IMG/VR virus record: IMGVR_UViG_3300027586_000004
Location: 30,844-94,843 of that record
Direction: 5' to 3' (one strand)
Origin: a virus
Length of the DNA stretch: 64,000 nucleotides
Of the stretch, positions 22,533 through 25,260 are shown piece by piece (position 1 is the stretch's first letter; each line of letters starts with the position of its first letter). The position numbers and the translations under genes are program-made. Below the pieces are notes generated by a model that was not told the DNA's origin, made no database searches, and was given only the letters and a program-made list of their open reading frames with translations.

Positions 22533-23262
22533 GGACGAAAAGTTCCTTAAAAAGCAACTCCACATACGGACTTATGGAAGAGCGGTAGTAGACCTTGTCA
22601 AAATCCAAGGAATCTAGGTCTCCAAAAATGCGAGACATCCAGGGAGAAAGCACGGCGTAGAAAGGAGAAACCTCTCCGGTTCCTATCCATGTTTTCATCT
22701 TATCCATGTTCAGTTCCATGGGTTTAAATTCTAAAAGGCTCCTTTTTTCAAAAAATTCATATGTCGCCTTTATTTCGGAAATTATCTTGGATGATTTCGT
22801 TGAAATGTCAGATTCCTTCGAAGTCAAAACCCGCTCAAGTTTTCTTCTGTACCTGTACCGCCAGAGTTTCCATCTCTTCCATGCCTTCTCACCCACAAGG
22901 CAGTGGGGTTCTATGAGGGCGTGAACCTCTCCCTCCTTGATTGCCTTCAAAATCTGAAGTTGAGCACGGATGTATAGGCATATCTCATTGTCTTGCAAGA
23001 TTCCTTTCATTTCTTTTGCAAGTTTATAGCAGTACTTAAAAAGCGTGGACTTTCTGGGGTCTGTATTGGCCTTGAGCTTGACAAACTGCTCTTTTGGCAG
23101 TTCCCTTCTGCACTCATCCTGCCATATGAGGGCTATCTTGTAGGCCTTGGCCTCCAAGTCCGTCATCTTGTACTTAATTATAAGCTCAAGTTCCTTCATT
23201 TTTTCTCTATTGCAGAAGTTTTCAAGTCTAGTTATGATTCCAGCATGCGAAAGATCATCCAC
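22519..23262 (-). CDS. Hypothetical protein (start may be 23199)
   Basis: 247-aa ORF, divergent from the structured non-coding region. Confidence 0.7.
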   Translation of the reverse strand: MDDLSHAGIITRLENFCNREKMKELELIIKYKMTDLEAKAYKIALIWQDECRRELPKEQFVKLKANTDPRKSTLFKYCYKLAKEMKGILQDNEICLYIRAQLQILKAIKEGEVHALIEPHCLVGEKAWKRWKLWRYRYRRKLERVLTSKESDISTKSSKIISEIKATYEFFEKRSLLEFKPMELNMDKMKTWIGTGEVSPFYAVLSPWMSRIFGDLDSLDFDKVYYRSSISPYVELLFKELFVHEYS

Positions 23263-23340
23263 TAACTATCATAACCTAATAACCTGAAACTTTCAACGTT
23301 TTCGTGGGATGAAATTTCGCAAGAGTAAATGTTTGGCATT

Positions 23341-23700
23341 CCCGTATTTCGGTACGGGCGGCCGGGTTAAAAACTCCCCGGCAGTTCGAAGCCTTGCGCT
23401 GAGACGCGTGTATGACTGAGGGGCTGAATCGTTTGGATGAAAGACTTTTATTGTAGTGAGAGCTGCATTTTTCCGTGTAACCCGATACTAGTTGATGTAT
23501 CACGGGGCCTGGGTCACGGTCCGCAATGGAGACAGATCAAAAAGTCAGTTTAGTCCGGATAGAGGAACGGTAAAGGTATAGCCAGACAGCGGTATTGTTG
23601 AACTCAAAAAGAAGGCAAGGATATAAGAACTAGGCAATTGGATCACTCTAATTAACTAGTTCTTATATAAGGGTCTCCTGAGGGAAGGCCCCCTTTCTAG
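23341..23700 (+). ncRNA. Candidate structured non-coding RNA or origin-like element
   Basis: Longest gene-free gap; UUCG-capped hairpin 23341-23358, GCCGGG/CCCGGC stem 23361-23382, nested stems ~23473-23519, 13-bp inverted repeat 23621-23633/23656-23668 with inner G-U stem. Confidence 0.5.
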
Positions 23701-23723
23701 ACACACTAAATAAAGGAATATAA

Positions 23724-23933
23724 ATGAACGATAAAAGCAGAAGACTTGAGGATTTGACTGGAAAGAGACTTAAGCCAAGGAAGGAGAACAACAGGAGGCT
23801 TCGCAGGAACATCAGAAGGATCGCAGAAAGAAAGGGAATAACCTACAAGGAGGCCATACTCAAGTTCTACAAGGTTCACAGCTATAAGGAACTAGATAAG
23901 AATCTTATTTATTCGCTTAACAAAGGCAAGTAA
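23724..23933 (+). CDS. Small Arg/Lys-rich protein
   Basis: AAAGGA RBS; highly basic 69 aa. Confidence 0.6.
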   Translation: MNDKSRRLEDLTGKRLKPRKENNRRLRRNIRRIAERKGITYKEAILKFYKVHSYKELDKNLIYSLNKGK

Positions 23934-23945
23934 ATCTGTTAGAAT
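23917..23945 (+). promoter_or_regulatory. Sigma70-type promoter for the polymerase, probably leaderless
   Basis: TTAACA-17 nt-(TGn)TAGAAT, ATG 7 nt downstream. Confidence 0.55.
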
Positions 23946-23952
23946 CTATTAG

Positions 23953-25260
23953 ATGAGCGTGTTTTCCGAAATACTCCCGAGGATAAAGGGGCAGGACGTA
24001 TATTTATATCTCTCCAAGGAGAACCCGGATTGGCAAAACCACAAGCAGGATGTCAGCCTTGTGGTTCATTTCGGAGGCAAGAGGGTCACGCTCCCCCTAG
24101 GCGACTCTTCTGACCTTAACTACCTCGTCTCCTCGCTCTACCACTTCCTGGACAAGGACAGGCTCGTTATTGCGTGGAGAGCCAAGGAAATCTTCTCCTA
24201 CCTCAAGGGTCGTACGGAGATGAGCCTGGAAGTACATAACCAGGTCTATGACCTCTCCCTCATCTCGTCATATCTCGGATCATCCCCTTTGCGTCCCGAA
24301 AACTTCAGGGATGCGGTCTCGCTGCTGAAGAGGCTGATGTCCGATCCGCTCTGGAAGAAATTTTCACCATACTACTCCGCCATACAAGTTCCCATGTTAT
24401 CGTCGATACTTCCCGAAATGGAGACGGGATGCATTGTCGATAACAAGAGGAAGAAGTGCGTGTATCCGACCTATGTGATGGAGGGCCAGGCCAACGGAAG
24501 ACTCAGCACCACCAAGGTCAATTCGTCCTCCTACAACCCCCATTCCATAGGCAAGGAAGAGAAGTCGAATCTCCGTCCTAGTGGCTACGACGAGGCATTT
24601 GTCTGCTACGACTACAGGAACATGGAGGTGGCCGTCCTGCAGTGGCTGTCGGGCGACCCAGCCCTGGCGTCAATCCTGGAATCGGGCAAGGATCTCTACA
24701 AGGAGATATGGCGTAAGATCACAAGGCAGGATCCCACCGACGCCCATAGAAAAATATGCAAGAACACATTTCTTCCGGTCGTTTTCGGACAGGGCAAGGC
24801 GTCTCTGGCCAAAAATCTGGGATCATCGGAAAAAATTGCTGCCAAGCTCATAAATAGCCTCGTCGATACCTTTCCCGTTGCTTTCGACTGGGTCAATGCC
24901 CAGTCACCCGACAGCAACAACACGGCAACTGATGTTTTTGGCCGCAGAAGAACTTTTGACGGACACGAACTGTACAAAATTAAAAATTTTTGTATCCAGT
25001 CGCCAGCGAGCATGATTTGTTTGAGAAAACTTGTGAAATTGCACGATGCCCTGGCTAGTAAGGCCAGCATCGGTTTTCATGTGCATGACGGATATTGCGT
25101 AATTTGCCATAAAAAGAACCTTGTTTCCACCTGCGAACTCGGAGCGAGTGTCCTCGAGGAGGAGGATGAAATGTTCCCCGGCCTATTACTCAAGACCACA
25201 TGCAAGTTCGGACAAAATCTCAATGATTTAGAAACTTTTACCAAGAGGATAAAGATATGA
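23953..25260 (+). CDS. Family A DNA polymerase, short (435 aa), thumb apparently deleted
   Basis: NGRLS, motif A DYRNMEVAVLQWLSGD, motif B RKICKNTFLPVVFG, FGRRR, NFCIQ, motif C HVHDG. Confidence 0.88.
   Translation: MSVFSEILPRIKGQDVYLYLSKENPDWQNHKQDVSLVVHFGGKRVTLPLGDSSDLNYLVSSLYHFLDKDRLVIAWRAKEIFSYLKGRTEMSLEVHNQVYDLSLISSYLGSSPLRPENFRDAVSLLKRLMSDPLWKKFSPYYSAIQVPMLSSILPEMETGCIVDNKRKKCVYPTYVMEGQANGRLSTTKVNSSSYNPHSIGKEEKSNLRPSGYDEAFVCYDYRNMEVAVLQWLSGDPALASILESGKDLYKEIWRKITRQDPTDAHRKICKNTFLPVVFGQGKASLAKNLGSSEKIAAKLINSLVDTFPVAFDWVNAQSPDSNNTATDVFGRRRTFDGHELYKIKNFCIQSPASMICLRKLVKLHDALASKASIGFHVHDGYCVICHKKNLVSTCELGASVLEEEDEMFPGLLLKTTCKFGQNLNDLETFTKRIKI

Follow-up and report, generated by a model that had tools for sequence, protein, structure and literature searches.

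The window, by which we mean the whole 64,000-nucleotide stretch of DNA analyzed here, belongs to a 94.8-kb IMG/VR virus record with a CheckV completeness of 16%. At a major switch in gene orientation, a gene on the minus strand is separated by a long non-coding gap from a ~40-kb block that begins at 23.7 kb and extends to the window's end, in which nearly all long open reading frames lie on the + strand. The gap holds a structured RNA, which stands at the head of this block. The principal features of the locus are as follows.

Left of the RNA, minus strand: divergent gene encoding a 226-amino acid protein, with homologues flanking the locus across relatives.
23296-23268, minus strand: predicted sigma-70-like promoter of the divergent gene, TTGAAA-17-TATGAT, both hexamers conserved in GC-rich relatives.
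23211-23239, + strand: rightward TTGCAG-17-TATGAT, conserved in GC-rich members as judged by eye.
23330-23692, + strand: structured RNA of ~370 nt, with a core (23330-23588) closed by an 8-bp helix.
23724..23933, + strand: gene for a 69-amino acid Arg/Lys-rich protein, homologues of which adjoin the RNA in the members read.
23953..25260, + strand: gene for a 435-amino acid family A DNA polymerase-like protein (Pfam PF00476, DNA_pol_A, E 2e-25, residues 164-423).

The mechanical gene call begins the 226-amino acid protein at a GTG (23262), whereas its relatives begin at the position of a methionine codon, ATG 23199 (MKELELI...). The ATG is probably the true start and the GTG wrong, so we place the non-coding gap at 23200-23723 (524 nt). 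An initial sequence-only reading had called this the longest gene-free gap, and the stretch 23200-23952 is indeed the longest in the window without an ATG-initiated open reading frame of at least 80 amino acids (the runner-up is 460 nt). The rightward hexamer pair was not called by the promoter scan, its first hexamer matching at 3/6 positions; if used, it would start a transcript ~85 nt before the closing helix of the RNA. The transcripts predicted from the rightward and leftward promoters overlap by ~15 nt at their 5' ends.

The divergent protein matches no Pfam or PHROG family and has no significant PDB match by sequence. The polymerase-like protein has Pol nu, Pol I, and Pol theta as its matches in the PDB. 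Among GenBank phages the closest is LR756511.1, an uncultured huge phage of 595 kb whose PolA and divergent-gene homologues are 34% and 35% identical, respectively. LR756511.1 (locus L144) and a 225-kb relative each have a DnaE-type polymerase and, as their sole family A gene, the short PolA; a family B polymerase was not found in either. The pattern of a DnaE-type Pol III alpha gene plus the short PolA, with no family B polymerase, was seen in LR756511.1 and in the records behind L011 and L017, the alpha gene of the 225-kb record being split into two open reading frames. Because the relatives also carry DnaE as main replicase, we take the short PolA to be an accessory enzyme.

The sequence-only reading had placed a multi-stem RNA at 23341-23700, described it as not AT-rich, and listed four stems. 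All four are present in the window (P0, P1, the nested P6, P7, and P8, and a 13-bp hairpin, given with their positions below), and the GC content of the RNA is 0.49. The proposed bounds were nearly correct, as the closing helix begins at 23330 and the final paired base is 23692. The thermodynamic stability of the whole gap is unexceptional (MFE z-score -1.0 on the + strand and -0.4 on the minus strand). Since these z-scores are ordinary on both strands, the stems taken alone do not exceed chance expectation; they rise above it because they are conserved with compensatory change in relatives.

Related loci were gathered in three ways: through homologues of the flanking proteins, by a motif scan of viral contigs, and by a stricter motif scan of metagenome contigs. 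Covariance models were seeded from close relatives and then realigned, the model R1 being seeded on four sequences and R2 being fuller. These models identify 17 distinct members in IMG/VR and JGI metagenomes (E 1e-14 to 1e-112), which range in GC content from 0.57 (GC-rich) to 0.31 (AU-rich). Nucleotide identity in the gap is 77-80% over ~100-330 nt (blastn), whereas the flanking proteins are only 46-61% identical; gene order is kept. The place of the RNA is constant among members: it follows the 226-amino acid divergent gene and lies 15-53 nt before the Arg/Lys-rich gene, which is followed by the short PolA gene. One copy of the RNA occurs per record (five records, all fragments).

R1 found nothing significant in more distant relatives even with filters off, and in LR756511.1 the position of the RNA and small gene (L144:1793-2956, + strand) is filled by a 387-amino acid open reading frame that belongs to no Pfam family. 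A search with the conserved-motif pattern alone, over one genome from each of 185,579 prokaryote species, yielded no member (3 chance matches, none confirmed). To judge from these searches, the RNA class is so far confined to uncultured huge phages with genomes of ~0.6 Mb, relatives of the 595-kb phage.

RNAalifold applied to a MAFFT alignment recovered the structure only partly, and a column-pair scan of a MAFFT alignment was dominated by chance stacks rich in G-U; covariance models were used instead for this reason. The resulting R2 alignment of 18 matches (A7: the 17 distinct members and one truncated copy) supports the following core, all on the + strand, in which "changed" refers to pairs altered on both sides among members.

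23330-37 (UGUUUGGC) / 23581-88: Pc, the closing helix; 8/8 pairs changed, 97% of A7 cells paired.
23341-47 / 23352-58: P0, a 7-bp hairpin (CCCGTAT/GTACGGG) with a UUCG loop; 7/7 pairs changed.
23361-66 / 23377-82: P1, a hairpin (GCCGGG/CCCGGC) with the conserved loop UUAAAAACUC; 6/6 pairs changed.
23385-88 (GUUC) / 23565-68 (GAAC): Px, 4-5 bp between two junction strands; covaries by eye on A7.
23390-93 (AGCC) / 23422-25 (GGCU): P2, enclosing P3; variants UGCC/GGCA, AGCU/AGCU, and AGCA/UGCU.
23395-99 / 23406-10: P3, a hairpin; 4/5 pairs changed.
23432-38 (UUUGGAU) / 23553-59: P4a; 7/7 pairs changed.
23443-49 (GACUUUU) / 23540-46: P4; 6/7 pairs changed.
23453-57 / 23462-66: P5, a hairpin with a GNRA-type tetraloop; 5/5 pairs changed, 97% paired.
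23473-77 / 23515-19: P6; CCGUG/CACGG becomes CCAUG/CAUGG.
23480-83 / 23511-14: P7, whose 5' strand is ACCC; adds little covariation support.
23484-88 / 23497-501: P8; four forms (GAUAC, GAUAG, GACGC, and GACAG) with matching partners, 100% paired.
23520-22 / 23528-30: P9, a small hairpin (UCC/GGA, 23520..23530); U-A to U-G changes only, the weakest helix.
23560..23588: conserved purine-rich strand, AGAGGAAC..AAAGG, which holds the 3' strand of Px (23565-68) and then that of Pc.

The closing helix takes the forms UGUUUGGU/ACCAGACA, CUGCUUGA/UCAAGCAG, and UUAAUCUUC/GAAGAUUAA in other members. Within it, P0 is a hairpin in all members at an equivalent place, with unrelated sequences, and P1 presents a 10-nt loop that is near-invariant in sequence. 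By eye, Px varies as GUUC/GAAC, GUCC/GGAC, GUUUC/GAAAC, and AUUUC/GAAAU. A long arm is formed by the stacked helices P4a and P4, the 5' strands of which are separated by GAAA, and carries P5, the P6-P7-P8 arm, and P9. The P5 tetraloop is GAGA in the window and GAAA in most members. The most conserved part of the RNA is the P6/P7/P8 arm (23473..23519), with the loop UAGUUGAU and an asymmetric internal loop. P9 is conserved without any changes on both sides.

Five AU-rich members (L010, L159, L153, L149, and L012) have two hairpins in place of the single P3, and L012 has an extra insertion in P9; both places are predicted to be expansion-tolerant sites. Two pairings considered for the core were dropped. 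A helix first named P10 (CCG 23555-57 with CGG 23569-71) conflicts with the better-supported P4a, and P4a with Px was used in its stead; pairing of AAAGG (23572-76) with a CCUUU downstream of the pseudoknot is not conserved.

The covariation in relatives that the sequence-only reading had looked for is present. The A7 alignment contains 66 pairs in 11 helices, with 94.2% of 1039 cells standard-paired and 50 of the 66 pairs changed on both sides. Because the alignments are model-fitted and the members, 17 in all, represent only ~7 sequence types, fewer independent events have occurred than these counts suggest. None of 500 column shuffles reached any of five measures, and sliding the 3' partners by 1-3 columns reduced pairing to 35-47%. 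Similarly, in the smaller R1 alignment (A4), 96% of cells are paired and 26/39 pairs have changed on both sides. Reading the alignment on the minus strand lowers pairing to 88.7% of cells, and G-U cells number 64 as against 7 A-C cells; the RNA is therefore made from the + strand, as the G-U pairs noted in the window had suggested.

These results bear on whether the gap might instead be a DNA-level element, such as a cruciform or operator array, or an unrecognized small protein gene. In favor of a DNA element, the 13-bp hairpin forms a perfect palindrome at the DNA level, and divergent promoters lie within the gap. However, the excess of G-U over A-C cells, the GNRA and UUCG loops, and the covariation of nested long-range helices and a pseudoknot all speak for RNA. 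As for a protein, all six frames of the core are interrupted by stops in most members, no frame is open or conserved across members, and indels among them are not multiples of three. A non-RNA explanation thus has a negligible chance of being right. One further proposed pairing, TTCAAC 23292-97 with GTTGAA 23597-602, was rejected: it is not conserved in L006, and its TTCAAC strand belongs to the leftward promoter as the -35 box. We conclude that positions 23330-23692 (+ strand) almost certainly encode a real structured RNA of a new family, a conclusion drawn from comparative sequence analysis.

The RNA was proposed to be undescribed, and the searches bear this out. None of the 4227 models of Rfam 15 matched anywhere in the window at the gathering threshold, and in E-value mode the gap and two divergent members gave chance-level matches only, far below threshold. 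Our literature search found no description of the RNA; pieces of it may be present among the ~8,500 short candidate structures that a 2023 study catalogued in IMG/VR (PMC10690425). By Rfam 15 and the literature searched, the RNA is a new class, a statement that concerns the family and not its mechanism.

Huge phages carry tmRNA genes. The RNA resembles tmRNA, including the permuted two-piece form, in having a GGGGCUGA stretch like an acceptor strand and a hairpin loop that starts GGUU..ACUCC like a T-arm. This identity was rejected. ARAGORN reports no tmRNA gene, nor any tRNA gene in the whole 64-kb window, and Rfam gives no match. The GGGGCUG strand that would form the acceptor stem contains the GGCU that covaries with AGCC 23390-93 as P2, the P1 loop has 10 nt and not the 7 of a T-arm, and no frame that could encode a tag is conserved across members.

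Downstream of the core, a 3' extension leads to the small gene and contains a partner for the internal loop of the P6/P7/P8 arm. Its elements, all on the + strand, are as follows.

23504-10 (GGGGCCU, internal loop of the P6-P8 arm) / 23686-92 (AGGCCCC): pseudoknot, strands ~175 nt apart; covaries by eye.
23621..23668: long variable hairpin with a 13-bp outer stem (23621-33/23656-68) and an inner stem; 8-30 stacked pairs in 15/17 members.
23671..23698: 3' element, comprising GGGUCUCC, a conserved AGGGA (23681-85), AGGCCCC (23686-92), and a U-rich tail (23694-98).

Among members, the pseudoknot takes the forms GGGGCGU/ACGCCCC, GGGUAUA/UAUACCC, GGGGCGUA/UACGCCCC, GGGGUAUA/UAUACCCC, and GGGCCU/AGGCCC, and also AAGGGUUUU/AAAGGCCCUU, which includes two U-G pairs. 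The duplex formed by a member's own strands is more stable than pairings across members, and none of 5000 permutations gave as low a mean. In nearly every member, the long hairpin sits between Pc and the 3' strand of the pseudoknot. Its sequence is unrelated among members; L005 and L034 have only a weak version, and that of L098 contains G-U pairs. Just 5' of the G-run, most members have an A/T-rich, TAtA-like box at the equivalent of 23663-23672 (TATATAAG, TATATAGG, TAATATAG, or similar), which could be a -10-only promoter or simply the foot of the long hairpin.

The distance from the 3' strand of the pseudoknot to the start codon of the small gene is 31 nt in the window, 15 nt in L012, and 15-53 nt overall. 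In GC-rich members, this strand can also complete a local hairpin (GGGUC.../...GGCCC; -8 to -16 kcal/mol) as its 3' half. Downstream of the hairpin, some members have UUUUCU or UUUCU and others weaker tails, and the U-tract is weak or absent in many (L006, L008, and the AU-rich group). Because of this, one shared termination mechanism does not fit all members. The AU-rich members lack the outer stem of the local hairpin; there, AGGGA can form a small hairpin with the CCC(C) run, and no Shine-Dalgarno sequence precedes the start codons of their small genes. The choice of the C-rich strand between a distant loop and nearby G-runs reads as the logic of an expression platform, though one not uniform across the family.

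The protein encoded directly downstream has a core of ~45 residues, consisting of a basic helix, HRRNI(K/R)RL, followed by ..I...EAI..FY and then ..KN..YS. (consensus of the first two parts, HRRNI(K/R)RL..(K/R)..I...EAI..FY). An AF2 model of the 69-amino acid protein is all-helical, with four helices and a pLDDT of 83. The protein has no Pfam or PHROG family and no significant sequence match in the PDB. Matches to ribosomal protein uL29 are weak and non-significant (E 0.07-0.6), and fold searches gave a best E of 5 with Foldseek and a best Z of 3.2 with VIA-align. A partnership between this protein and the RNA had been suggested from the window. The association holds in every member that could be read, each having a homologue 15-53 nt downstream of the RNA; whether it extends to binding is a matter of hypothesis.

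What the RNA does can be approached through this arrangement. Our leading, and still tentative, proposal is that of a cis-acting leader whose pseudoknot gates the downstream operon, a reading to which we give a little less than an even chance. The RNA would be co-transcribed with the rightward genes, since in most members the 15-53 nt to the ATG are too short to hold a separate promoter, and it would act in cis on the operon of the small basic protein and PolA. With the core folded, the G-rich internal loop would capture the C-rich strand. With the core unfolded or the loop occupied, the C-rich strand would pair locally with its G-rich neighbors, which in GC-rich members would create a terminator-like hairpin followed by U-rich sequence, and in AU-rich members a small hairpin beside the start codon that lacks a Shine-Dalgarno sequence. 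The gate would thus act on termination or translation of the downstream operon. The most obvious candidate for an effector is the Arg-rich protein, which would then be autoregulatory; a small-molecule ligand is equally open.

For such a leader, the covarying core (66 pairs, 94% of cells paired) offers a sensor domain. The local hairpin overlaps a strand of the pseudoknot, and the RNA heads the ~40-kb + strand block, both of which count in favor of the gate. A single copy of the RNA per record and a single occurrence of the 3' box AGGGAAGGCCCC in the window are expected for a cis element. Riboswitch and protein-responsive leaders (T-box, cobalamin, lysine, and the T4 gene 32 pseudoknot operator) likewise lie directly upstream of a gene, and leaders with a pseudoknotted expression platform likewise have a multi-helix junction core with conserved unpaired nucleotides and a long-range pairing that overlaps a local hairpin near the start codon. 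However, the phage RNA matches no Rfam leader in sequence or structure, is larger (~370 nt), and has no family-wide terminator-like hairpin. Counting against the gate are the AU-rich group, without the outer stem of the local hairpin; the capture of the 3' half of a terminator by a pseudoknot, which is kinetically unusual; and the ~260-nt closed core, which exceeds most leaders in size. In addition, the TAtA-like box, if a promoter, could put the 3' strand of the pseudoknot in a separate mRNA.

As the RNA heads a long operon, it might also be a processive antitermination element, whose nascent transcript, with or without the Arg-rich protein, would modify RNA polymerase to let it pass terminators. 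The order in phage lambda is pL-nutL-N, with two nut sites in that phage; put, from HK022, and EAR, from the Bacillus eps operon, are protein-independent antiterminator RNAs. All of these are, like the phage RNA, structured RNAs that head a long operon. By analogy, the succession of structured RNA, small Arg-rich gene directly after it, and ~40-kb co-directional block would mirror that of lambda, the small protein has an arginine-rich helix, and P5 is a conserved GNRA-type hairpin. On the other hand, the phage RNA is many times larger than nut, put, or EAR, is present once per record (in five records, all fragments) as compared to the two nut sites of lambda, and contains no boxA/boxB-like unit that we recognized, albeit without a specific search. 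The sister clade described below, moreover, does without the small protein. We regard antitermination as distinctly improbable.

The neighboring polymerase gene suggested to the sequence-only reading an RNA-primed origin, in which a persistent RNA-DNA hybrid, as formed by ColE1 RNA II, would be extended by the Pol I-like enzyme before DnaE takes over. As with RNA II and DNA polymerase I, a structured RNA adjoins the gene of an accessory Pol I-type enzyme while the main replicase is of the Pol III type (DnaE); the locus is, moreover, a major gene-orientation switch, and the pairing of a G-rich loop with a distant C-rich stretch loosely recalls RNA II. The evidence lends this proposal no support. 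Cumulative GC skew reaches its lowest value near 6-7 kb and does not turn at 23.3 kb. The C-rich partner lies on the RNA-sense strand and not the template strand, and its covariation is explained by RNA-RNA pairing. No promoter for an antisense RNA regulator and no origin-type repeats were seen, in which respect the locus differs from that of RNA II, and the more distant 595-kb relative has its 387-amino acid open reading frame in place of the RNA. A primer or origin RNA is accordingly a very doubtful explanation.

The elaborate architecture of the RNA points in another direction, toward a free-standing, trans-acting RNA or the scaffold of an RNP with the Arg-rich protein, conceivably including the PolA-like enzyme, that does not regulate its own operon. 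With ~13 helices, a closing helix, a pseudoknot, and conserved loops, it resembles stable RNAs more than typical leaders. It also co-occurs strictly with a small basic helical protein (the uL29 matches being non-significant), and the sister clade has a different large structured RNA beside its PolA homologue. Against this, the 15-53 nt to the start codon leave no space for a terminator and a promoter in most members, no convincing terminator is common to all members, a second target of the G-rich loop was not found in the window, and the fold of the small protein is without a match. We consider a trans-acting role unlikely, if well within reach.

GOLLD, ROOL, OLE, and raiA are large, ornate, covariation-supported RNAs of obscure biochemical function, found mainly in metagenomic or phage DNA, and the phage RNA is similar to them in these respects. 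GOLLD and ROOL are frequently located beside tRNA genes, and OLE and raiA occur in bacteria. The phage RNA differs from GOLLD and ROOL in giving no covariance-model match, in having no tRNA cluster nearby (none in the 64-kb window), and in its tight coupling to a downstream gene.

A more specific RNP may be imagined, in which the Arg-rich protein would hold the ~370-nt RNA while it primes or templates DNA synthesis by the short family A polymerase. Huge phages would then employ a Pol I-type enzyme in a manner reminiscent of telomerase, retrons, or RNA II, and the sister-clade RNA beside a PolA homologue would be an analogous partner. We consider it highly speculative, with a slim likelihood.

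Large RNAs with more than 10 covarying helices are rare, and new classes have opened lines of research, as riboswitches, ribozymes, OLE, GOLLD, ROOL, and the guide RNAs of IscB/TnpB did. The RNA described here heads a block of replication genes, and it is coupled there with both a small arginine-rich protein and a Pol I-like enzyme of accessory role. Should it prove to be a leader, it would rank among the largest and most elaborate phage cis-regulators known and would provide a handle on the timing of replication genes in huge phages; if a component of an RNP, it could belong to a new RNA-protein machine. Under either reading, clear mutants follow from the structure model, the set of 17 sequences, and the pseudoknot.

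The sister clade consists of four loci (L018, L023, L026, and L027), whose homologues of the divergent gene are ~38% identical. These have a gap of ~600-700 nt at the equivalent place, directly before the PolA homologue, and lack the small protein gene. The gap matches neither R1 nor Rfam. It contains a very conserved non-coding stretch of ~450-600 nt (L018:3440-3900, minus strand, and also in L026, L027, and L023), for which RNAalifold predicts 116 pairs, 16 of them changed on both sides among four sequences only. This stretch is probably a second undescribed large RNA, as modeled from that alignment.
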